From Candidatus Yanofskybacteria bacterium RIFCSPHIGHO2_01_FULL_44_24 (GTDB lineage Bacteria; Patescibacteriota; Minisyncoccia; 2-02-FULL-40-12; GWA2-44-9): 64,000 nt of DNA. The DNA is taken from NCBI GenBank assembly GCA_001794215.1, contig MGJK01000012.1:4834-68833 (forward strand), given 5' to 3'. The position numbers and the translations under genes were made by a program. The notes under the pieces are model-generated. The model saw only the letters and a program-made list of their open reading frames with translations. It did not search any database and was not told where the DNA came from. This document shows, piece by piece, positions 24,143 through 54,475 of the stretch. Every line of letters begins with the position of its first letter. Within the stretch, counting starts at the first letter, position 1.

Positions 24143-24589
24143 ATGGTTTTAATATCGCATCGGGGCAATATTAGCGGTGAAAATCCGGAAAGGGAGAACA
24201 GTCCCGGGTATATTATAGAGGTTTTGACCCGAGGCTATAATGCCGAAATTGATGTAAGGCTTATTGATGGTATTTTTTGGCTTGGTCACGATGCTCCCCG
24301 ATATCAAATAGAGGAGAGCTTTTTGGAAAATGACAAATTGTGGTGTCATGCGAAGAACTTCGCGGCATTGGCAAAAATGCAGCAAAATAAAAAAATACAT
24401 TTTTTTTGGAATCAGGAAGACAATTTTGCCCTGACTTCAAAGGGGTTTATCTGGACATATAAAAGCAAAGAAATTTGTCCCGTGTCTGTGCTGGTTAAAC
24501 CGGAAGTACTGGGGATAACCGATAAAAAAAAGTTGCCGGATTGCTATGGCATTTGCTCTGATTTCGTAGCCAACTTTAATGAAATATAA
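24143..24589 (+). CDS. short glycerophosphodiester-phosphodiesterase-like protein
   Basis: VLISHRGN (HRG motif) and AEIDVRLIDGIFWLGHDAP (E-x-D-V...DG...HD motif) of the GDPD fold. Only 148 aa, so truncated relative to canonical GDPDs. Confidence 0.45.
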   Translation: MVLISHRGNISGENPERENSPGYIIEVLTRGYNAEIDVRLIDGIFWLGHDAPRYQIEESFLENDKLWCHAKNFAALAKMQQNKKIHFFWNQEDNFALTSKGFIWTYKSKEICPVSVLVKPEVLGITDKKKLPDCYGICSDFVANFNEI

Positions 24590-25190
24590 AGCTATAATTT
24601 TTGATTTGGATGGCGTATTGGTCAATATGCCTGCCGCTCACTTTGAGGCGCTAAACTGCGCTTTGAGTTTGTTTGGAGTTGCCATTGAGAAGGACGAGCA
24701 TTATAATTTTTTCAACGGGCTTCCTACCAGAAAAAAACTCGAAGAACTTGAGCGGAAGAACCGTCTTCCTGTTGGTTTACGTGAGTTTATTAACAGGATT
24801 AAGCAGAATTACACAAAAGATCTCATTCCGTCATATTGTGTTCCCGATTATTCGAAAATCATTCTTTTACGGTACCTCAAGGGACAGAATTATAAATTGG
24901 CATGCTGCTCAAATTCAATCAGTGAAACCCTCCACCTAATGTTAAAATCCGCCCATTTATTCGATTATTTTGATCTGATCCTGGGAAACGACGAGGTTAC
25001 CAACCCTAAACCGGATCCCGAAATTTATTTAACTGCCTTCAGGCGCTTGCAGGTTAAGCCAAGCGAATGTATTATTGTGGAGGATGCCCCTCATGGCATT
25101 GCGGCCGCAAAAGCCAGCGGGGCCAAGGTTCTTCAGGTTAGAAATACCGAAGACGTAAACTTATCTTTATTTTACAGCGAAGGCATTTAG
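24579..25190 (+). CDS. HAD-superfamily hydrolase (beta-phosphoglucomutase-like phosphatase)
   Basis: AIIFDLDGVLV motif I and a C-terminal IVEDAPHGIAAAKASG motif IV region. Confidence 0.75.
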   Translation: MKYKAIIFDLDGVLVNMPAAHFEALNCALSLFGVAIEKDEHYNFFNGLPTRKKLEELERKNRLPVGLREFINRIKQNYTKDLIPSYCVPDYSKIILLRYLKGQNYKLACCSNSISETLHLMLKSAHLFDYFDLILGNDEVTNPKPDPEIYLTAFRRLQVKPSECIIVEDAPHGIAAAKASGAKVLQVRNTEDVNLSLFYSEGI

Positions 25191-25213
25191 TTGCTCTAAG
25201 CTATCTATAGTTT

Positions 25214-25957
25214 ATGCTTAATATTGTTATTCCAATGGCCGGCAAGGGCTCAAGATTTCAGGAGGCAGGTTTTGTGTTTCCAAAACCGCTTATTGATGTG
25301 AAGGGGAAGGCCATGATAGAGCTGGTTGCAAGCAACCTCCGTCCCAGGTGTGCACACCGATTCATATTTATCTGCCAGAGAGAGCATGCAGAAAAATACG
25401 ACCTCCATAATATTTTAAAAAGTGCGACAAAAAATAAATTCGAGATTGTTCAGCTTGGAGGGATGACTCAAGGCGCTGCCTGCACGGTCTTAACCGCTGC
25501 GCAATATATCGATAACGATGATGATCTATTGATCGCCAACTCGGATCAGTTTATTGATTATGATATCAATGATTTTATCAATCGAGGACGCGCTAAGGGT
25601 GATGGATTAATCCTGACTTTTAAATCAAGTCATCCAAAATGGAGTTATGCGCGAGTCGACAGGGCAAGCAGGGTGGCGGAAGTTGCGGAAAAAAAAGTAA
25701 TCTCCGACAGGGCTACCGTGGGGATATATTATTTTAAGCACGGAAAACATTTTGTTGCCGCTGCCCAGGAGATGATTGCGAAAAATATAAGGTACAACAA
25801 TGAATTTTATGTATGCCCGGTTTTTAACGAGCTGATTTTAGGAGGGAAGCAAGTATTTACCAGGAATATATCTGTCGAAAAAATGCATGGCCTTGGTACG
25901 CCGGAAGATCTCAACGCATTTCTCCGCAAGCTGGATAGCGGTATCGTAAAAGTATAA
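25214..25957 (+). CDS. sugar-phosphate nucleotidyltransferase (LicC/IspD-like GT-A fold)
   Basis: N-term IVIPMAGKGSRFQEAGFVFPKPLIDVKGKAMIE (G-x-G-x-R nucleotide-binding motif). Confidence 0.65.
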   Translation: MLNIVIPMAGKGSRFQEAGFVFPKPLIDVKGKAMIELVASNLRPRCAHRFIFICQREHAEKYDLHNILKSATKNKFEIVQLGGMTQGAACTVLTAAQYIDNDDDLLIANSDQFIDYDINDFINRGRAKGDGLILTFKSSHPKWSYARVDRASRVAEVAEKKVISDRATVGIYYFKHGKHFVAAAQEMIAKNIRYNNEFYVCPVFNELILGGKQVFTRNISVEKMHGLGTPEDLNAFLRKLDSGIVKV

Positions 25958-37270: not shown

Positions 37271-38224
37271 ATGAAGAAGATAGCATTTGTTGTCGGAGTT
37301 TTTCCAGCCGTGTCTGAAACCTGGATGATCAATCAAGTCGCCGGTGCTTTAGATCGGGGTTTTGACGTGGATATTTATTCTTTTGAACGTCAGGACGAAA
37401 AGAATGTGTCCGATGTTTATCGTAAATATAAAATGTCTGAGCGGACGAGGTATATAGGGATGCCCGAGAACAAAATCGTAAGAATCGCTTTGGCTCTGCC
37501 GAAAATTATCAGACTTTTGTTAGTTTCTCCGGGAACTTTATTCAAAAGTTTGAATGTCGGGGAATACGGCCGGAATGCCCTATCTCTGAAATTTCTTTTC
37601 TGGTCTGAAGCTTTTGCCGGCAAAAAATACGATCTTATCCATCTCCATGACGGAGTTATAGCCGCTCGGTTTTTGACCATAAGAGATATAGCCGGAATCA
37701 AGGGTAAACTGCTGACCTCCTTCTATGGACAGGACGTGAGCCGGAGGGTAAAAGAAAATCCTCATATTTACGACAGGCTCAAGAAGACTGATTCGGAGTT
37801 TATCGTCATGTCGGATTATATGAGAAAACGCGTAGTAGATATGGGGTTTGACGAAAAAAGAGTTCACACCGTGTCGATATTCGGGATTGATGTTGACGCG
37901 CATCCGTTTAAGGAGAGGACAATTTCTCCCGGCGAGACATTCGAAATTGCGGCGATGGGCCGGTTTGTGGAGAAAAAGGGATTTGACGACATTCTAAGGG
38001 CCTTAGCCATCGTAAAGCAGAAGGCGAATAGGAAGTTTCATTTCAGTTTTATCGGAGGCGGAGAACTTGATCAAAAGCTTAGAAAAATGACCACAGACCT
38101 CGATTTGGATGATGTCGTCTCTTATAAAGGATACATGAAGATAGAAGATGCAATGAAATATTTAATGGGTATGCATCTGTACCTTCAGCCGTCAAAGATG
38201 GCGTCTGACGGAGACCAGGAATAA
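37271..38224 (+). pseudogene. GT4 glycosyltransferase, N-terminal 317-aa fragment (gene split by repeat element)
   Basis: GT4-like through ...LYLQPSKMASDGDQE, then a TAA exactly where the E-G-x-P...LEAMA motif should continue. The element copy at 38225 follows. Confidence 0.65.
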
Positions 38225-38338: not shown

Positions 38339-38617
38339 ATGACCACTTCTGTCCTACAAGCCCTTGCTACCGGTCTTCCATGCATCACCACTAATCACGG
38401 TGCCTTTAACGAGCAGATAGTTGATGGCAAAAACGGTTTTATGGTTCCGGAAGGAGATTATATGGCATTAGCCGAGAAGGTACTGTATTGCATGGATCAT
38501 CCGGAGCTATGGCCCGGTTTTGGTCGTTTTGGCAGACAACAGGTTCGGGATCGCTTTGATCTAAATTCTCTAATGGATAGGCAAGTTCAAATTTATAATA
38601 ACCTTTTAAGTAAATAA
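38339..38617 (+). pseudogene. GT4 glycosyltransferase, C-terminal 92-aa fragment with its own ATG
   Basis: MTTSVLQALATGLPCITTNHGAFNEQIVDGKNGFMVPEGD is the remainder of the GT4 E-x7-E region. Joined to the 317-aa upstream piece it gives a normal-length (~409 aa) GT4. Confidence 0.65.
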
Positions 38618-40856: not shown

Positions 40857-41393
40857 ATGGGAAATAAAAACGAGAAACCAAAGAACTTTATTATCGATGT
40901 AGACGGCGTCTTAACTGATGGCCAGTATTACTATACCGACAAGGGGAAGGTTATGAAAGTTTTTGGTCCCGATGATCACGATGCCCTATTGTTAATAAAA
41001 CCCCATCTGAATATTTGCATGATTTCGGGCGATAAAAGAGGGTTTGAGATTACCAGAAAAAGAATCGTGTCAGATATGAGGTTTCCTCTATGGTTGGTAA
41101 GTACTTTTGAAAGGGTTGAGTGGATCAAGCGTAAATTCAATCCCGAACAGACTATATATATGGGCGACGGTATATTTGACGGATCAGTTTTCGATGAAGT
41201 TGCGTATGGTATCGCGCCGGCCAATGCATTTTATAAAATAAAAGAAAGGGCGGATTTCGTAACTTTCTCGCGAGGCGGCGACAGTGCGGTGGCAGAAGCT
41301 TGCCTTCATATAATGGAGAAATTCTTTAAGCCTATCGACCTGAAGAATATAAAGATTAACGAAGCGGGTGTTTGGCGGAAGAAGAAGCAGTAA
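40857..41393 (+). CDS. KdsC-family HAD phosphatase (3-deoxy-manno-octulosonate-8-P / N-acylneuraminate-9-P phosphatase-like)
   Basis: FIIDVDGVLTDGQYYY...MISGDKRGFE...IYMGDGIFDGSVF matches the YrbI/KdsC subfamily. The ORF finder's 40803 start adds a hydrophobic leader; ATG at 40857 (MGNKNEK) is preferred. Confidence 0.65.
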   Translation: MGNKNEKPKNFIIDVDGVLTDGQYYYTDKGKVMKVFGPDDHDALLLIKPHLNICMISGDKRGFEITRKRIVSDMRFPLWLVSTFERVEWIKRKFNPEQTIYMGDGIFDGSVFDEVAYGIAPANAFYKIKERADFVTFSRGGDSAVAEACLHIMEKFFKPIDLKNIKINEAGVWRKKKQ

Positions 41394-41529
41394 TAATTAT
41401 GCACTGGAAAAAACCTACTCACAGTGCTAATGTTAAAAGTATAAAGAATTTTTAAGGAAATAGGGAGGATCGGCGTCATAAAATTAGATGACGGCTCGGT
41501 CCCCGAAATCCTATTTCTTGCGATTCATC

Positions 41530-43131
41530 ATGAACTACAAGGTCTGTATTTTGGCTGCGGGCATCGGTTCTCGCATGGGGAGCTTGTCAGACCACGTTAA
41601 TAAGGCCATTCTACCCGTAAATTATAAGGGTGTTATTTCGCATATCATTGAGAAATTTCCTAAAGATGTCGAAATAATAATCGCCGTAGGCCATAAGAAG
41701 GAAACTATTAGAAATTACCTATCCTTAGCTCATCCGGATAGGCTTCTGACCCTTGTCGATGTAGATAAGTACATGGGTCCGGGTACAGGGCCGGGATATT
41801 CTCTTTTGCGGTGCAAAAAATTCCTAAACTCTCCTTTCGTTTTTTTTGCAGCCGATACTTTAGTAATCGAAGATGTTCCTTTACCCGACAAAAATTGGTT
41901 CGGAATCGCTCCCGTTAAAGAAACGGAGAAATATTGTACCGTCAAGATTAAAAATAACTTAATTTGCCAACTGGATGACAAAATCAAAACCGATAATCGT
42001 TTTGCCTTCATCGGTTTAGCAGGTATTAAAGACTACCAAGATTTTTTTTCAGCTTTGGAAAAGGATAAAAATTTGATTGGCGGCGAAGTTCAGGTTTCAA
42101 ATGGGTTCAATAAATTGATCGAGAAAAAACTGGTGCCGATCGGCTTCACTTGGTTTGATACGGGCGCCCTCAACAGCTACGCAGAAACTAACAGAAATTT
42201 TATGGGCGGTGATAAAAAATTTGATTTCAGCAAGGGAAATGAATTTCTTTATTTTATCGATGACAGGGTAATTAAGTTTTTTGCCGATGCCGAAGTATCA
42301 AGCAACAGGTATGCCAGAGCGAAAAAAAGTTTATCTGAATTTTGTCCGGAGCTTATAGGCTTGGAAGGCGGTTTTTACAGCTATAAAAAAGTTGACGGCG
42401 CCACTCTCTATAGCGTTCTTAACACGAAAATCGCAAATGACTTTTTCAATTGGGCATACCATAATCTGTGGCAACGAGTCGAGTTACCCTCTGCGGAAAA
42501 AAAGGAATTTTTATCAACTTGTCAGAGGTTTTACTATGATAAAACCGAGAAAAGATTGCAGGATTTTTATAATAAGACGGGCTTGCAGGATACCCCAAAC
42601 AATATAAACGGGACGGAAACCCCGTCATTGAAAGAGCTGTTGTCTCAAATAGACTGGAAATATATTACCGACGGCATTCCAACCAATTTTCACGGGGACC
42701 TTCAGTTTGACAATATTTTGGTTGCCAACAATTCCGGTCCCGATGCCAAGTTTGTTTTATTGGACTGGCGGCATGATTTCGGGGGACTTACGCATGCGGG
42801 GGATATTTATTATGACTTGGCCAAGCTTTACGGAGGTACCATAGTGTCCTACCAGCTGATGAAGGACGGGATGTTTTCTTTTAACATGAGCGGTTCGGAC
42901 GTTTATTACGATTTTTATACTAAAAGCAATCTTAACGATGCCCGAGACGAATACGAATTATTTCTAAAAAGTCATGATTTTGACTTAAATAAAATCAAGA
43001 TCATTACCGCACTTATTTTTTTGAATATGTCTCCATTGCACAATGACCCTTTTGACCACATGGTGTACTATCTCGGCAAAAACATGCTTTATAAGACCCT
43101 TAGGACCGTCAATTATGGAAAAAGAGCATAA
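41530..43131 (+). CDS. bifunctional nucleotidyltransferase (N, LicC/MobA-like) / small-molecule kinase (C, choline/aminoglycoside-kinase fold)
   Basis: N-term VCILAAGIGSRMG. C-term Brenner/APH-like HGDLQFDNILV and LLDWRHDFGG. Start at MNYKV (41530) is preferred over the ORF-finder start at 41488. Confidence 0.65.
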   Translation: MNYKVCILAAGIGSRMGSLSDHVNKAILPVNYKGVISHIIEKFPKDVEIIIAVGHKKETIRNYLSLAHPDRLLTLVDVDKYMGPGTGPGYSLLRCKKFLNSPFVFFAADTLVIEDVPLPDKNWFGIAPVKETEKYCTVKIKNNLICQLDDKIKTDNRFAFIGLAGIKDYQDFFSALEKDKNLIGGEVQVSNGFNKLIEKKLVPIGFTWFDTGALNSYAETNRNFMGGDKKFDFSKGNEFLYFIDDRVIKFFADAEVSSNRYARAKKSLSEFCPELIGLEGGFYSYKKVDGATLYSVLNTKIANDFFNWAYHNLWQRVELPSAEKKEFLSTCQRFYYDKTEKRLQDFYNKTGLQDTPNNINGTETPSLKELLSQIDWKYITDGIPTNFHGDLQFDNILVANNSGPDAKFVLLDWRHDFGGLTHAGDIYYDLAKLYGGTIVSYQLMKDGMFSFNMSGSDVYYDFYTKSNLNDARDEYELFLKSHDFDLNKIKIITALIFLNMSPLHNDPFDHMVYYLGKNMLYKTLRTVNYGKRA

Positions 43132-44125
43132 AATAGATTCAACATTGGGTATCGGTCCTATGAGCTCAGAGGTGATTGAGGCCGTGTTTAGGTACTCTAA
43201 CTACTACCGCAAGCCGCTCATGCTCATTGCATCTAAAAATCAAATTGACTGGCGGGGCGGGTATGTTAATGGCTGGAAGACCGAAAATTACAAGTCTTTT
43301 ATAGACCAGATGAGACAACAGTACGGTTTGGCCAAGGTTTATATTTGCAGAGATCACTGCGGTCCCGGATTTAACGGCGTATATGATCTTGACGATACCT
43401 ATAAAACTATCGAAGACGATATCAAAAACGGCTTCGATCTTATTCATATCGATTTTTGCCATTTTCGAGGAAGCAAAGATGAGCAGTTCGAAGCATCAAA
43501 AAAGGCAATCGAGCATTGCCTTTCCCTAAAACCAGATATTTTCCTGGAAGTAGGCACTGATGAAAATGCCGGCGTTAGTTATAATCTTTCAAACGCCGAA
43601 GAGATTGAAAGAGAGATGGATTTTTTTAAAAGTTTTTGTTCCCCCGATTTTTACGTGGTGCAAACCGGAAGCCTGACAAAAGAGATAAACCAGGTTGGAA
43701 AATTCAACAAACAATTCGTGGAAAAAATATCCAGGATTTGTTCTGACAAGGGGATGAGCCTGAAAGAACATAACGGAGATTATCTGGACAAAGATCAGCT
43801 GGCATTGCGCAAGGGGATTGTCAACGCCATTAACATAGCTCCGCAACTCGGCGTAGTGCAGACAAACTTTGTTTTGAGCAGATGTTTAATGTACGGAATA
43901 GATTTCGGAGACTTTATCAAGGAGGCTTATCATGGCAAGAAATGGCAGAAGTGGCTTCATGGCAGCGACGACAGCAACAAATTTTTATGCTCTTTAATTT
44001 CCGGCCATTACCACTTTACATCCGATTCTTATAAGAGAATAATAGAACAATTAGGCCGAGTCGAAGATATCAGGGAATTAATAATCAATGAATTGATGAG
44101 CGTAATAGATCATTATGAAATATAA
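43115..44125 (+). CDS. GatZ/KbaZ-like (tagatose-6-phosphate kinase / tagatose-bisphosphate aldolase accessory family) protein
   Basis: IGPMSSEVIEAVFRYS...LMLIASKNQIDWRGGYVNGWKT resembles the GatZ N-terminal pattern (SVCSAHPxVIEAA...LIEATSNQV.QFGGYTGM). Start at MEKEHK (43115) overlaps the upstream gene end by 17 nt. Confidence 0.45.
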   Translation: MEKEHKIDSTLGIGPMSSEVIEAVFRYSNYYRKPLMLIASKNQIDWRGGYVNGWKTENYKSFIDQMRQQYGLAKVYICRDHCGPGFNGVYDLDDTYKTIEDDIKNGFDLIHIDFCHFRGSKDEQFEASKKAIEHCLSLKPDIFLEVGTDENAGVSYNLSNAEEIEREMDFFKSFCSPDFYVVQTGSLTKEINQVGKFNKQFVEKISRICSDKGMSLKEHNGDYLDKDQLALRKGIVNAINIAPQLGVVQTNFVLSRCLMYGIDFGDFIKEAYHGKKWQKWLHGSDDSNKFLCSLISGHYHFTSDSYKRIIEQLGRVEDIRELIINELMSVIDHYEI

Positions 44126-44504
44126 GTTTCCAAAAATTGTCAATAAACCGTGGGGCAGGGAGGTCTGGTTAGAGTTAAATAAAAATTATTGCTACAAAAG
44201 GATTTACATCAACAGAGGCTTTAGAACCAGTTTTCAGTTTCACCGGAAGAAGATGGAAACCAACTATATCATCAAGGGTAGGGCTGAAATTTGGCTTGAA
44301 AACGATCGCGGCGTTGTTTTGAAAAAAAATATGAAAAGCGACGATTTTTTTACAGTTAAACCGCCCCGAAAGCACAGAGTGGCTGCAATAACCAATCTGG
44401 TTCTTCAGGAGGTTTCTACCCCTGAAGTCGACGATGTTGTCAGAATCAACGATGATACCAATAGGCCCGATGGTAAAATTAAAAGCGAGCACAAAAATAA
44501 ATGA
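44115..44504 (+). CDS. cupin-domain protein (mannose-6-P-isomerase-like small cupin)
   Basis: KPWGREVWLE...FQFH..K.E...I.KG is the cupin motif pair. Confidence 0.6.
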   Translation: MKYKFPKIVNKPWGREVWLELNKNYCYKRIYINRGFRTSFQFHRKKMETNYIIKGRAEIWLENDRGVVLKKNMKSDDFFTVKPPRKHRVAAITNLVLQEVSTPEVDDVVRINDDTNRPDGKIKSEHKNK

Positions 44505-44788
44505 ATCCCGTTAGAGCCAAAATGTACTACCATGTCTATGTATTACAAAGCACAAAGGATAGGCACTGGTATACAGGCTTTACGGTGGATTTACGGAAGC
44601 GCTTGAAAGAACACAATGAAGGAAAGTATGAGTCGTGGACAAAAGGCAGAGGACCATTTGAATTAATATATTATGAAGCGTCTAAAAACAAACAAGATGC
44701 TAAAAATAGAGAAAAATATCTTAAAACTGGCATGGGCAAGCGCTACCTCAAAAACAGGCTTAAGCGCTTCCTGGCTCTAACGGGATGA
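44501..44788 (+). CDS. GIY-YIG nuclease-domain protein (YhbQ/UPF0213-like)
   Basis: YYHVYVLQS...WYTGFTVDLRKRLKEHNEG is the GIY-YIG core in a ~95-aa protein. Overlaps both neighbours by 4 nt (ATGA). Confidence 0.65.
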   Translation: MNPVRAKMYYHVYVLQSTKDRHWYTGFTVDLRKRLKEHNEGKYESWTKGRGPFELIYYEASKNKQDAKNREKYLKTGMGKRYLKNRLKRFLALTG

Positions 44789-46497
44789 ATCCAAATCTTT
44801 CTAAAATCTGCGTACGGCCGGATGACAGCATCAAGGCGGTGCTGGATAAATTAGTTTTGCATAAGCCAGCCCAAACCAAGCTTCCCGGGGGGATTGTCTT
44901 GATTACCGAAAAGGATGGTAAGTTAGTCGGTATTGCTACTGATGGCGACATTCGAAGAGGACTTGCTGGAGGAGCAAAAATGGAAGATCGGATTTCCGCT
45001 CTGATGAACGGTAAGCCCTTTGTCGTTCAGGGTCCGACAACGAGCGAAGCGATACTCTCATTGGCTTCGGAGAAAATAAGAAAAGAAGGGCTCCATCGCG
45101 ACCGCTTAAGCAAAATTATCATCGTCGATAAAGATAAAAAGGTTTTAGATTTAGTCTCTTTTTATGATTTATGGAGGAAAAGCGATGTAAGGTTCAGGCA
45201 GATCGGAGTTGTCGGTTTGGGATATGTGGGCTTGACGCTCGGTGTTACCTTGGCCGATTTAGGGTTCAAGGTCATTGGTTTTGATATTGCTCCCGCGGTT
45301 AGGAAATCTTTGCAGAGAGGCAAGCCTCACTTCTACGAAAACGGCCTGGAAAGAATGCTTAAAGACAACTTAAGCAAGAATTTAAGGATTGCAAGTAATT
45401 TCAAAGGAGCCAATAATTGCGATGTATATTTTGTTTCTGTCGGCACTCCCTTAGACGGTAATAAAAAACCGAACCTCAAATATTTGCGTAATGCCTCAGA
45501 AAGGATCGGGAAGGTGCTGAAGGAGGGAGATTGCGTGATTTTACGCTCGACTGTTCCGGTCGGCGCGACCAGAAATTTTGTAGTGCCGATTTTAGAGAAA
45601 CTTTCCGGACTTAAGGCCGGTGACGGGTTTTTCGTCTCATTTGCCCCTGAAAGAACCATAGAGGGCAAGGCTCTTGAGGAATTGAGAAACCTTCCTCAGG
45701 TAGTTGGAGGAATTAATCGCGTAAGCGCCGATTTGACGGCGACCCTTTTCGGCCATATGACCCATTCGACGGTCTTGGTGGACTCTCTGGAAGAGGCAGA
45801 GACGGTTAAGCTTATCAACAATACTTATCGAGATGTTACCTTCTCCTTTGCCAACGAACTGTCCCTGATTTGCCATCGTTTGGGCATCGATACTCACCGG
45901 GTGATCGAGGCTGCTAATCGTGGATATGCAAGAAGCAATGTCCCTTTGCCTGGGCCAGGAGTCGGAGGAGCGTGCCTTGAAAAGGATCCATTTATTTTTA
46001 TCGAAAGCGCCAAAACCAAAGACTACGATCCGTTGCTGGTAAGGCACGCCCGATCGGTAAGCGACTTGATGCTCGATTTTATTACCCGGGAGATCAAAAG
46101 GTTCTTGGCCGGAAAACCAAATCTGCGCAACCCCAAGGTATTTATGATGGGCTTTGCGTTCAAGGGTCAGCCTGTTACCTCCGATATCAGGGGTTCGTAT
46201 TCGGTTAAGCTCGCAGATCAACTGAAGAAGAATATTCCGAATATCCATGTTTATGATCCTGCGGTTAGGCGGGAAGATATTCTGAATCATGGGCTCAGGT
46301 ATGCCGGCGACCTTAAAACAGGATTTACCGGAGCGGACGTGGTCGTGGTTATGAATAACAATCCGGCGTTTGGAGAAATAGACATAAGAAGCGCTCTCCA
46401 GTTGACTAATAAGCCGGCATTTCTATTTGATACTTGGGGAATATATAATAGAGAAGACGTGGCCAAAGTCAAAGGAGTGGAGTATAAGAGGTTGTAA
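44785..46497 (+). CDS. CBS-pair domain fused to UDP-glucose/GDP-mannose-dehydrogenase-family nucleotide-sugar dehydrogenase
   Basis: N-terminal ~150 aa with CBS-like repeats (LVGIATDGDIRRGL). Then the NAD-binding IGVVGLGYVGLTLGVTLADLGFKVIGFD and the UDPG/MGDP dehydrogenase central and C-terminal regions. Confidence 0.7.
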   Translation: MNPNLSKICVRPDDSIKAVLDKLVLHKPAQTKLPGGIVLITEKDGKLVGIATDGDIRRGLAGGAKMEDRISALMNGKPFVVQGPTTSEAILSLASEKIRKEGLHRDRLSKIIIVDKDKKVLDLVSFYDLWRKSDVRFRQIGVVGLGYVGLTLGVTLADLGFKVIGFDIAPAVRKSLQRGKPHFYENGLERMLKDNLSKNLRIASNFKGANNCDVYFVSVGTPLDGNKKPNLKYLRNASERIGKVLKEGDCVILRSTVPVGATRNFVVPILEKLSGLKAGDGFFVSFAPERTIEGKALEELRNLPQVVGGINRVSADLTATLFGHMTHSTVLVDSLEEAETVKLINNTYRDVTFSFANELSLICHRLGIDTHRVIEAANRGYARSNVPLPGPGVGGACLEKDPFIFIESAKTKDYDPLLVRHARSVSDLMLDFITREIKRFLAGKPNLRNPKVFMMGFAFKGQPVTSDIRGSYSVKLADQLKKNIPNIHVYDPAVRREDILNHGLRYAGDLKTGFTGADVVVVMNNNPAFGEIDIRSALQLTNKPAFLFDTWGIYNREDVAKVKGVEYKRL

Positions 46498-46557: not shown

Positions 46558-46908
46558 ATGAACGAAGCTAAAAAACCTTATGATTTGGAAGAGCGGTCTT
46601 TACTGTTTGCTAAACGAGTTAACGGTTATGTGCGTAAATTGCCGAAGGATACTCCTAATTTTGAAAACGGAAAGCAATTGGTCCGTTCTGGTGGTTCAAT
46701 CGGAGCTAATTATATCGAAGCTAACGAGGCTATGAGTAAGAAAGATTTTAGAATGAGAATCAAGATATCTAAGAAAGAGGCCAAGGAAACTGTCTTCTGG
46801 TTAAAGTTGACTCAACCGACTTCAGAACAAATAAACGAAAAAGACGATTTAGTAAAAGAAGCTGGCGAGTTGATGAATATTTTAGGCGCTATCTTGGTTA
46901 AATCTTAG
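46558..46908 (+). CDS. four-helix-bundle protein (23S rRNA IVS protein / Avd-like family)
   Basis: YDLEERSLLFAKRV...SIGANYIEANEAMSKKDF...KEAKETVFWLKL. Paralog of 8485. Flanked by the inverted A-rich/T-rich arms at 46498-46540 and 46924-46958. Confidence 0.75.
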   Translation: MNEAKKPYDLEERSLLFAKRVNGYVRKLPKDTPNFENGKQLVRSGGSIGANYIEANEAMSKKDFRMRIKISKKEAKETVFWLKLTQPTSEQINEKDDLVKEAGELMNILGAILVKS

Positions 46909-46979: not shown

Positions 46980-47702
46980 TTGTATAAACAGTATAAAGTA
47001 TTGGGTCTTATTCTTGCTCGCGGAGGTTCCAAGTCTATTCCTAAGAAAAATATTAAACTGCTTGGAGGCAAGCCTTTGCTTGCCCATACGGTTGAAAAAG
47101 CCAAAGCCGCCAAGTACATTGACCGGCTCATCCTTTCCACTGACGATAAAGAGATTGCCGATGTCGGCAGAAAATACGGAGCCGAAGTTCCTTTTACGCG
47201 ACCGGCAGAATTAGCCGAAGACAGCACGACCGACTATCCGGTTTTCGTTCATGCGGTTGAGTGGCTTGAAAAGAACGAGAATTGGAAGCCCGATTTTGTC
47301 GTTCACTTACGGCCGACTCATCCTTTTCGTAAAACTTCAGATATCGATAAAGCCGTAGAAATGCTCGCCGGTAATCCGGAAGCCGATTCTGTTTGGACCG
47401 TTGGGCTGCCTCCGGTGACGCCGTACAAGATGTTTTTGGCCGAAGAAGGCCAATTTATTAAACCAGTCGTTACTATCCCCGGAGTAGATGAGGCGTATAA
47501 TCTTCCTCGTCAGAAACTTCCCAAAGCCTACAACCACTATGGCCAAGTTGATGTTATGAGGCACAATACGTTGATGAAAAAGAAATCAATGTGTGGGAAA
47601 AATATCTTACCTCTTTTCCTTGAAGGAGAATTAGTTGATTTAGATACTCTATTCGATTGGGAGTTCGCGGAGTTTCTAATGAAAAAAGGGAAGATCAGAT
47701 AA
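46980..47702 (+). CDS. CMP-nonulosonic acid synthetase (acylneuraminate cytidylyltransferase NeuA/PseF/LegF family)
   Basis: LGLILARGGSKSIPKKNIKLLGGKPLLAHTVEKA...RLILSTDD is the classical N-terminal CMP-NeuAc/CMP-Kdo synthetase motif. TTG start. Short form without an esterase domain. Confidence 0.75.
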   Translation: MYKQYKVLGLILARGGSKSIPKKNIKLLGGKPLLAHTVEKAKAAKYIDRLILSTDDKEIADVGRKYGAEVPFTRPAELAEDSTTDYPVFVHAVEWLEKNENWKPDFVVHLRPTHPFRKTSDIDKAVEMLAGNPEADSVWTVGLPPVTPYKMFLAEEGQFIKPVVTIPGVDEAYNLPRQKLPKAYNHYGQVDVMRHNTLMKKKSMCGKNILPLFLEGELVDLDTLFDWEFAEFLMKKGKIR

Positions 47703-53320: not shown

Positions 53321-54475
53321 TTGATATCAAGCATGAATGGTTTTAATATTAAAACCCCTTATAGTAGTAGGAGGATAGGCGATAACGCCCCTACTTTTGT
53401 TATAGCCGAAATAGGTAAGAATTTTATCCAGACCAAAAAGGAGAAATCGGTTAAAGAATATCTGAGGAACGCCAAAGAACTGGTAATTTTAGCCAAAAAA
53501 TCCGGAGCTGATGCGGTTAAATTCCAAACCCATAATGTCGAGGATGAACAGCTCAATTTAAAAATAAGAGCCCCGCACTTTAAGGGCGATAGGTACGAAT
53601 GGGTTTCGAGGAATACCAAGGCTACACCGGTTAAAGAGTTTTGGATTCCGCTCAAAGAATTCTGCGATAAGGAAGGAATCACATTTTTCTCTACGCCCTG
53701 CAGTTTAGGAGCCGCAAAGATATTGTCCTCCCTGGATGTGGCTCTGTGGAAAGTCGCCTCTTGGGATATTTTGGATTTTGTTATGCTCGACCATATCAGA
53801 AAAAGCGGCAAACCGGTTATTATTTCCGGCGGAGCCAGTACGGCCGAAGAGATAGACAGATCAATCTCTTATATCCAGGAGAAAAACAAAAATCTTGCCT
53901 TGCTTCATTGTGTTTCCAAGTATCCCTGTCCACCCGAAGAGTTGAATTTGGGTACGATCGGTTTTTTTAAGAAAAGATACGATGTCCCCATAGGTTTTTC
54001 CGATCATTCTTTAGGCATCGAGTCTACCCTGGCCGCCGTTGCCCTGGGAGCTAAGGTGATAGAAAAACATTTCTCCCTGTCCCGAAGCTTATGGGGGGCC
54101 GATCATAGATTTTCCATGACTTCGGCATCGTTTGGTAAAATGGTTACAGAGATAAGGAAAATAGAGGCTAATCCCGGTGCGGCTCAGAAATATTTAAATC
54201 ATGAGAAAGTAAAGCCGAGCCTGAATTTTTCCGGCAAGGTTATCAGAGACGAAGAGAAAAGCATGAAGGCCGTATTTGCCAAGGCTCTTTTTGCCGGACG
54301 GGATATTCCGGCCGGACAAGTTATAAAATCTGATATGTTATACTCAATGAGACCCGGATTGGCGGTCGGAGGACTTCAGCCACTCCACTTCCATATGGTA
54401 GTCGGTCAAAAATCAGCAAAAGATTTGAAGAAGTTCGAACCGATAACGTTAGAAGTTGTAAAATCCGAAATCTGA
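53321..54475 (+). CDS. N-acetylneuraminate-synthase family enzyme (NeuB/PseI/LegI-like) with C-terminal SAF domain
   Basis: FVIAEIGKN...GADAVKFQTH...IGFSDHSLG is the NeuB TIM-barrel region. C-terminal antifreeze-like domain (ARDIPAGQVIKSDMLYSMRPGLAVGG). Confidence 0.8.
   Translation: MISSMNGFNIKTPYSSRRIGDNAPTFVIAEIGKNFIQTKKEKSVKEYLRNAKELVILAKKSGADAVKFQTHNVEDEQLNLKIRAPHFKGDRYEWVSRNTKATPVKEFWIPLKEFCDKEGITFFSTPCSLGAAKILSSLDVALWKVASWDILDFVMLDHIRKSGKPVIISGGASTAEEIDRSISYIQEKNKNLALLHCVSKYPCPPEELNLGTIGFFKKRYDVPIGFSDHSLGIESTLAAVALGAKVIEKHFSLSRSLWGADHRFSMTSASFGKMVTEIRKIEANPGAAQKYLNHEKVKPSLNFSGKVIRDEEKSMKAVFAKALFAGRDIPAGQVIKSDMLYSMRPGLAVGGLQPLHFHMVVGQKSAKDLKKFEPITLEVVKSEI

Follow-up and report, generated by a model that had tools for sequence, protein, structure and literature searches.

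The DNA considered here, referred to below as the window, is a stretch of 64,000 nucleotides from Candidatus Yanofskybacteria bacterium RIFCSPHIGHO2_01_FULL_44_24 (contig MGJK01000012.1, positions 4,834 to 68,833). This 64-kb window is a large glycan-biosynthesis locus, and at positions 40857-44504 it carries four close-packed genes on the + strand that form one cassette, encoding a HAD phosphatase, a fusion of a nucleotidyltransferase with a kinase, a GatZ-like barrel protein, and a small cupin. A first-pass annotation of the sequence had described three of these genes as a unit; its genes, coordinates, and gene overlap hold, and the fourth gene, that of the cupin (44115..44504), had been overlooked. 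The cassette genes and the two domains of the fusion protein are as follows (NTP, nucleoside triphosphate; NDP, nucleoside diphosphate).

40857..41393, + strand: HAD phosphatase of the KdsC/YrbI (IIIA, capless) type; ATG at 40857, 178 aa
41488..43131, + strand: fusion protein of a nucleotidyltransferase and an APH-fold kinase; 547 aa, alternative start at 41530
41488..42222 (start possibly 41530), + strand: N-terminal nucleotidyltransferase domain of the fusion; proposed to convert sugar 1-phosphate and NTP to NDP-sugar
42223..43131, + strand: C-terminal small-molecule kinase domain of the fusion, APH/choline-kinase fold; proposed to phosphorylate C1 of an aldose omega-phosphate
43115..44125, + strand: short GatZ/KbaZ-like TIM barrel of class II aldolase fold, 336 aa; proposed metal-dependent ketose-phosphate C4 epimerase or aldolase for precursor supply
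44115..44504, + strand: small cupin related to the type II phosphomannose isomerase (PMI) domain, 129 aa; proposed to catalyze aldose-ketose isomerization of a sugar phosphate

The HAD gene lies upstream of the fusion gene at a spacing of 94 nt. The fusion gene ends with TAA at 43131 and the GatZ-like gene begins with ATG at 43115, giving an overlap of 17 nt, and the GatZ-like gene shares 11 nt with the cupin gene; stop/start overlaps join three of the four cassette genes.

Identities of the four cassette proteins

The N-terminal half of the fusion protein matches PF12804 (NTP_transf_3) at 32.8 bits against a cutoff of 27, aligns over its full length with RmlA, and carries the W-F-D-T-G hallmark of sugar-1-phosphate transferases. 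In structural comparison, RmlA-type sugar-1-phosphate transferases, aligned over their full length, score higher than the choline-type (LicC) alternative. The kinase half has the APH/choline-kinase fold, in which the residues K263, HGD404, N409, and D426 are invariant, and the Brenner motif HGDLQFDNILV occupies residues 402-412. The kinase half of the window protein has no Pfam match at E<0.01; PF01636 (APH) is nonetheless matched by all 25 tested family members at E<=1, with a best value of 9e-10, whereas PF01633 (Choline_kinase) is touched by only four of the 25 kinase domains, at E>=0.024. Sequence and profile searches of the PDB with the kinase domain return only marginal APH-type matches (E >= 0.07) and give no hint of the substrate. 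The MurU equivalog models score far under their cutoffs against the fusion protein (NF045761, 22.7 bits with a cutoff of 250; NF045697, 19.9 bits with a cutoff of 370), which excludes at the family level an AmgK-MurU pair, the identity that the first-pass annotation had set against its own proposal. Met15 (41530) is the start in nearly all fusion homologues and may be the real start here; a GGGAGGA sequence is, however, present 17 nt upstream of 41488.

The HAD protein has the IIIA fold and the DxD motif, and the motifs DVDGV and GDG..D are kept across 66 HAD homologues. It scores 72 bits against TIGR01670 (KdsC/YrbI subfamily), under the 107-bit cutoff, and 62 bits against NF007019 (KdsC), below the cutoff of 208; a match to NF058599, the model for KDN 9-phosphate phosphatase, is weak (52 bits, cutoff 180). 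Among solved structures, PDB 2p9j is matched at E 4e-17 and KdsC structures at E 1e-12 to 1e-13.

The third protein matches PF08013 (GatZ_KbaZ-like) at 32.5 bits with a cutoff of 26.7, in an alignment covering residues 17-115 only. Its AlphaFold2 model, with a mean predicted local distance difference test score (pLDDT) of 87.8, was compared with known structures using Foldseek; the best match is 2fiq GatZ (TM 0.79, E 3.5e-14), and the top matches, 2fiq and 3txv (TM 0.76-0.80), are the two solved GatZ-family proteins. The GatZ assignment survives both hidden Markov model (HMM) and fold search, and the GatZ-type equivalogs of NCBIfam, whose cutoffs lie above 560 bits, score 22-31 bits. In a sequence alignment made without structural superposition, D80/H81, D149, and H219 align with D87/H88, E171, and H257 of E. 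coli GatZ; D80, H81, and H219 are invariant in the GatZ-like family, as is E150, the residue next to D149. GatZ and KbaZ have been reported to be fructose 6-phosphate (F6P)/tagatose 6-phosphate C4 epimerases using Asp87/His88/Glu171/His257 (PMC11907403), and in view of that report and the conserved catalytic residues the customary label of non-catalytic subunit would be no argument against catalysis here. A GatY/KbaY partner was searched for and none was found, nor were phosphotransferase system (PTS) or kinase genes of tagatose catabolism.

The cupin matches PF01050 (type II phosphomannose isomerase, C-terminal domain) at 31.2 bits with a cutoff of 23.6, and its orthologue on a marine viral contig does so at 104 bits. 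The motifs KPWGxExW, SxQxHxxKxE, HR, and DDVxRxxDD, which include the QxH...E...H metal site, are kept in 71 homologues. Catalytic residues are thus conserved in all four cassette proteins, and the domain identities that the first-pass annotation had assigned, namely a KdsC-like HAD, a nucleotidyltransferase fused to a kinase with a Brenner motif, and a GatZ-like protein, all hold.

Conservation of the cassette among bacteria and archaea

Eighty loci were fetched from species-representative genomes of Candidate Phyla Radiation (CPR) bacteria, DPANN archaea, and other phyla, and their open reading frames (ORFs) were searched with the window proteins. The fusion gene is accompanied by the HAD gene in 65 of the 80 loci, by the GatZ-like gene in 72, and by the cupin gene in 70. 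Where the fusion gene is full-length, every copy of the HAD (63), GatZ-like (69), and cupin (68) genes is on its strand, mostly within 1.5 kb. At least eight different gene orders occur, and in-frame fusions join the fusion protein to the GatZ-like protein (L047, L051), the cupin to the fusion protein (L070), and a paralogous transferase to the HAD (L050). Linkage that is preserved in spite of reshuffled order and the gene fusions just named speak strongly for a single pathway, and the grouping of the cassette genes is not due to chance. Conservation of the gene neighborhood, which the first-pass annotation had proposed as a check of its unit, is accordingly borne out.

Homologues of the fusion protein number in the thousands in CPR bacteria and DPANN archaea, at 60-69% identity; Proteobacteria, Planctomycetota, Elusimicrobiota, and others have a second subfamily, at ~40% identity. 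Among public sequences, a protein with 100% identity derives from a Candidatus Yanofskybacteria genome. Between the window and archaeal loci of Woesearchaeota, Pacearchaeota, and Nanoarchaeota (L006, L012, L014, L015) both the fusion and the GatZ-like proteins are 60-69% identical, which points to inter-domain transfer of the whole cassette. All named sources are metagenome-assembled or single-cell genomes, so that no member of the cassette has been studied in culture; a homologue search with the Legionella-type subfamily for a cultured organism with a known glycan returned metagenomic proteins only, and a tblastn search of plasmids gave no match.

The usual fifth member of the cassette is an oxidoreductase, present in 66 of the 80 loci as either a shikimate-dehydrogenase-like protein (41 loci) or a classical short-chain dehydrogenase/reductase (SDR; 25 loci) and almost never as both. 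Neither type is found in the window at E<1e-6; the nearest oxidoreductases there are an NDP-sugar dehydrogenase fused to a CBS region and a D-2-hydroxyacid dehydrogenase, both downstream of the cassette. The near-mutual exclusion of the two types looks like non-orthologous displacement of a redox step. In the shikimate-dehydrogenase-like protein, judged by eye against E. coli AroE, the catalytic Lys/Asp of AroE are kept and the carboxylate-binding Ser-x-Ser is apparently lacking; examples of the oxidoreductase genes are L005:7169-7993 and L011:10571-11347.

Many DPANN and CPR loci also contain a second, stand-alone nucleotidyltransferase close in sequence to the N-terminal domain of the fusion protein (120-300 bits; for instance L019:7197-8741, L050:5430-6623, and L001:11066-11770); in some cases it forms one protein with an inositol-monophosphatase-family domain or with the HAD. 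An intein, suspected behind a 0.8-kb insertion in some DPANN matches, was rejected, the insertion being the adjacent gene of this paralogous transferase. In the loci from Omnitrophota, genes for a family 2 glycosyltransferase (GT2) and a YfhO-type transferase come after those of the HAD and the fusion protein.

No description was found in the literature of this gene combination in CPR or DPANN, or of a cellular family with a GatZ-like barrel, PMI-like cupin, KdsC-type HAD, and the usual oxidoreductase. Databases enter family members as 'choline kinase', 'NTP transferase domain-containing protein', or 'tagatose-bisphosphate aldolase non-catalytic subunit'; the first and the last are among the names corrected by the analysis of the cassette. 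Very little is known of the surface chemistry of the tiny symbionts that make up CPR and DPANN, and the cassette has thousands of copies in metagenomes.

A proposed route to an activated sugar and its alternatives

Full-length phage homologues of the fusion protein were located by translated search of phage genomes. Gp047 of Enterococcus phage 9183 is 24% identical to the window fusion over 95% of the query (E 2e-19; pairwise E 3e-26) and itself matches ~390 phage records, including the AfhE protein of E. coli phage HY126 and gp82 of Acinetobacter phage DLP3, both at E 1e-12 over 85% of the length. An HMM built from the cellular family recovers the HY126 protein directly (37 bits, E 7e-8 in a million-sequence search space) with both domains collinear, hhalign aligns 453 columns at E 3.5e-4, and the kinase motifs HGDxxFxN, DxRxxFG, and YDxAK are common to the cellular and phage proteins. 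By these sequence comparisons the window fusion is a distant homologue of AfhE across both domains.

In PMC13326640, which cites He et al. 2026, HY126 AfhE is described as a D-arabinose-5-phosphate 1-kinase/UDP-arabinofuranose pyrophosphorylase with the HAD phosphatase AfhF as its partner. As set out there, an SIS isomerase turns ribulose 5-phosphate into arabinose 5-phosphate, AfhE converts arabinofuranose 5-phosphate to the 1,5-bisphosphate, the adjacently encoded Mg-dependent AfhF takes off the 5-phosphate, and AfhE then makes UDP-arabinofuranose.

In phage 9183 the genes gp046-gp048 (L085:5657-8857) encode a small HAD, the AfhE-like fusion, and a glycosyltransferase-like protein, and are sited between ThyA-like/dUTPase and RNase H/thymidine kinase genes in a nucleotide-metabolism module; this arrangement resembles a module for DNA glycosylation. 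PMC13326640, a paper on 5-hydroxycytosine glycosylation, does not mention phage 9183. On the marine viral contig a fusion homologue 31% identical to that of the window lies in a HAD-cupin-fusion-GatZ-like cassette. In cells the HAD beside the fusion is of the KdsC type, in phage 9183 and the marine virus it is a small one of the PNKP type, and the recurrence of a HAD neighbor of differing subtype argues that a phosphatase step is required. A phmmer search with AfhF gave no match in the window or the 80 loci, and no SIS arabinose-5-phosphate isomerase is found in either; the cupin and the GatZ-like protein stand in its stead.

Taken together, we consider it likely that the cassette is a four-gene NDP-sugar biosynthesis unit of a surface-glycan locus, operating in the order kinase, phosphatase, transferase. 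In a first step, the GatZ-like barrel, as a metal-dependent retro-aldol/aldol enzyme, and the PMI-like cupin would produce a specific aldose omega-phosphate from a central ketose phosphate; the GatZ-like enzyme would most likely set the C4 configuration, or build the ketose phosphate, before isomerization, and the cupin would stand in for the SIS isomerase. C1 would then be phosphorylated by the C-terminal APH-fold kinase of the fusion to give an aldose 1,omega-bisphosphate, from which the KdsC-type HAD would strip the omega-phosphate, and the N-terminal nucleotidyltransferase would join the resulting aldose 1-phosphate with NTP to give an NDP-sugar for the glycosyltransferases of the locus. 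The suggestion that the core would work like AfhE/AfhF and the NDP-heptose route comes from homology where the fusion protein is concerned and from analogy where the HAD is. The first-pass annotation had the HAD dephosphorylate ulosonate phosphates, which is not supported; the analogous enzymes AfhF and GmhB make the terminal (omega) phosphate of a sugar 1,omega-bisphosphate the more likely target. Use of the product as a glycosyl donor would fit the GT2 and YfhO-type genes in Omnitrophota, the glycosyltransferase-like gene in phage 9183, and the glycan-locus context of the window. Two broader suggestions of the first-pass annotation, a functional module feeding a glycan and the activation of a sugar derived from a ketose phosphate, are supported.

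Several observations weigh against this scheme. The similarity to AfhE is distant, ~24% by way of an intermediate, the direct hhalign probability is only 37%, and the biochemistry of AfhE/AfhF is taken from a secondary account. The replacement of the SIS isomerase by the unrelated GatZ-like protein and cupin indicates that the substrate is probably different and probably not arabinose. At three positions that contact the substrate in GatZ, the GatZ-like protein has other residues (K279->N, E44->I, C20->S). Neither the GatZ-like gene nor the cupin is present in the Omnitrophota loci, so the core does not strictly require them. The oxidoreductase of 66 of the 80 loci has no place in the model, so that the scheme is incomplete.

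Pentoses, hexoses (e.g., of talo/galacto form), and heptoses are all possible as the sugar; chemistry of the PMI type would give talose 6-phosphate from tagatose 6-phosphate and glycero-manno-heptose 7-phosphate from sedoheptulose 7-phosphate (S7P). A more specific reading is offered tentatively, as a possibility: the cassette would make a so far undescribed NDP-sugar (perhaps a talo/galacto NDP-hexose, or else an epimeric NDP-heptose built from F6P or S7P), with the GatZ-family protein as the first dedicated biosynthetic C4 epimerase or aldolase, feeding an AfhE-like kinase/transferase and a KdsC-like bisphosphate phosphatase, and would be a surface-glycan trait exchanged between CPR and DPANN and a cellular relative of the phage DNA-arabinosylation enzymes. 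If the proposal is correct, a mutase-free route to an activated sugar is common to both sides of the divide between bacteria and archaea, the GatZ family has an anabolic role, and the phage enzymes for UDP-arabinofuranose are tied to a large cellular family.

A salvage-type order leading to the same product appears unlikely. The HAD would free the sugar from an aldose omega-phosphate, the kinase would phosphorylate the free sugar at C1, and the transferase would activate it, as in FKP and AmgK-MurU. KdsC-family enzymes normally release the free sugar acid and APH-fold anomeric kinases of free sugars are known, namely NahK and AmgK, both of which count in favor of this order. It is also the order in the computational annotation given for DLP3 gp81 and gp82 in Table 1 of PMC13326640, whereas the text of that paper has AfhE making arabinofuranose 1,5-bisphosphate (Araf1,5P2) from arabinofuranose 5-phosphate (Araf5P), with AfhF dephosphorylating afterwards. 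In addition, an Arg invariantly follows the Mg-binding Asp of the kinase (D426-W-R428, and DPR in the phage enzymes), which would fit a phosphorylated substrate, contrary to a salvage order.

Activation of choline, ethanolamine, or another amino alcohol, as the first-pass annotation had proposed, is not supported, and a LicC/LicA-like fusion that makes CDP-choline, CDP-ethanolamine, or another CDP-amino-alcohol or CDP-polyol (e.g., of the CDP-2-glycerol type, with a reductase) as donor of a phospho-substituent is very unlikely. The transferase domain favors RmlA-type enzymes structurally and over its full length, WFDTG included, and the matches of the kinase domains to Choline_kinase are few and marginal. 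The obligate partners, the GatZ-like protein and the PMI-like cupin, are sugar-phosphate enzymes, no LicD- or LicB-type gene is among the recurrent neighbors in the loci, the phosphatase would have no role, and the characterized homologue, AfhE, acts on a sugar phosphate as described in PMC13326640. The CDP-2-glycerol-type route was rejected in its own right: it gives no part to the GatZ-like protein, the cupin, or the phosphatase, and a paper on pneumococcal capsule loci is silent on the Gtp protein families.

That the genes are mere neighbors, with the HAD serving a nonulosonic-acid route of NeuB and PseF-like type as a phosphatase of KDN 9-phosphate or Neu5Ac 9-phosphate and the GatZ-like protein and cupin being catabolic, is extremely improbable: NeuB (53321-54475) and a PseF-like CMP-transferase (46980-47702) are present in the window and the HAD weakly matches the KDN 9-phosphate phosphatase model, but the HAD gene is beside the fusion gene, often overlapping it, in 65 of the 80 loci, PseF-like genes occur in just four, the partner, PTS, and kinase genes of tagatose catabolism were not found, and overlapping stop and start codons tie three of the four genes together.

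The surrounding locus and comparison with known systems

The genes of the window outside the cassette include a GDP-mannose 4,6-dehydratase, DegT aminotransferases, a C-methyltransferase and many other methyltransferases, glycosyltransferases, NeuB, a PseF-like CMP-transferase, and ABC exporters. Those with coordinates are the following.

24579-25957: beta-phosphoglucomutase-family HAD (TIGR02009, 113 bits), followed immediately by a 247-aa sugar-1-phosphate nucleotidyltransferase
37271-38224 and 38339-38617: split GT4/GT1 glycosyltransferase, its N-terminal part in an ORF of 317 aa and its C-terminal part in one of 92 aa
44501-44788: 95-aa stand-alone GIY-YIG protein (PF01541, 57 bits), overlapping by 4 nt each of its two neighbors, the genes of the cupin and of the CBS-fused NDP-sugar dehydrogenase
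44785-46497: NDP-sugar dehydrogenase (TIGR03026, 369 bits), in an unusual fusion with an N-terminal CBS region resembling that of KpsF/GutQ arabinose-5-phosphate isomerases
46558-46908: four-helix-bundle protein of the 23S-rRNA-intervening-sequence type (TIGR02436, 70 bits)
46980-47702: PseF-like CMP-transferase
53321-54475: NeuB

The GIY-YIG protein, the NDP-sugar dehydrogenase, and the four-helix-bundle protein follow one another directly downstream of the cassette, and the first and last of these are possibly of selfish origin within the glycan operon. The phosphatase and transferase pair at 24579-25957 may be another sugar-activation unit of the locus. The splitting of the glycosyltransferase comes from a frameshift, pseudogene, or assembly error.

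The statement of the first-pass annotation that the combination matches no textbook pathway has to be qualified: the chemistry of the core is already known from NDP-heptose and phage UDP-arabinofuranose biosynthesis. Neither AmgK-MurU, which serves the recycling of N-acetylmuramic acid (MurNAc), nor LicC/LicA matches at the family level, and both systems do without a phosphatase, cupin isomerase, or GatZ-like enzyme. GatZ and KbaZ of E. coli and the related tagatose-6-phosphate/fructose-6-phosphate 4-epimerases resemble the window barrel in fold, Pfam family, catalytic Asp-His, acidic residue, and second His; the window barrel, in contrast, has 336 aa rather than 420, is ~15% identical, differs at the three substrate contacts, and sits in a biosynthetic cassette without the GatY/KbaY partner or a catabolic context.

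The NDP-heptose pathway (GmhA, HldE or HddA/HddC, GmhB) follows the same kinase-phosphatase-transferase logic as the core of the cassette, and canonical GmhA and GHMP kinase genes lie beside the cassette in a few loci. Its kinase is ribokinase-like (HldE) or of the GHMP type (HddA), whereas that of the cassette is APH-like; its isomerase is of the SIS type rather than a cupin, the HAD subfamily differs, and the GatZ-like enzyme has no counterpart.

The closest known system is the phage AfhE/AfhF module (HY126; RB69 gp52:53 and gp51; DLP3 gp82 and gp81), whose product is described as UDP-D-arabinofuranose. With AfhE the window fusion shares the arrangement of an N-terminal nucleotidyltransferase and a C-terminal atypical (protein-kinase-like) kinase, with sequence homology over both domains, and the modules have in common an adjacent HAD phosphatase, an upstream isomerase for the aldose phosphate, and, as far as the phage route is described there, the kinase-phosphatase-transferase logic. 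The window module differs in being cellular (CPR, DPANN, and others) and in belonging to a glycan locus rather than to a phage DNA-hypermodification cluster. The identity of the cellular fusion to AfhE is only about 20-25%, its HAD is of the KdsC type whereas AfhF is of a small PNKP/GmhB-like type, and the SIS arabinose-5-phosphate isomerase is replaced by the PMI-like cupin and the GatZ-like barrel, usually together with an oxidoreductase.

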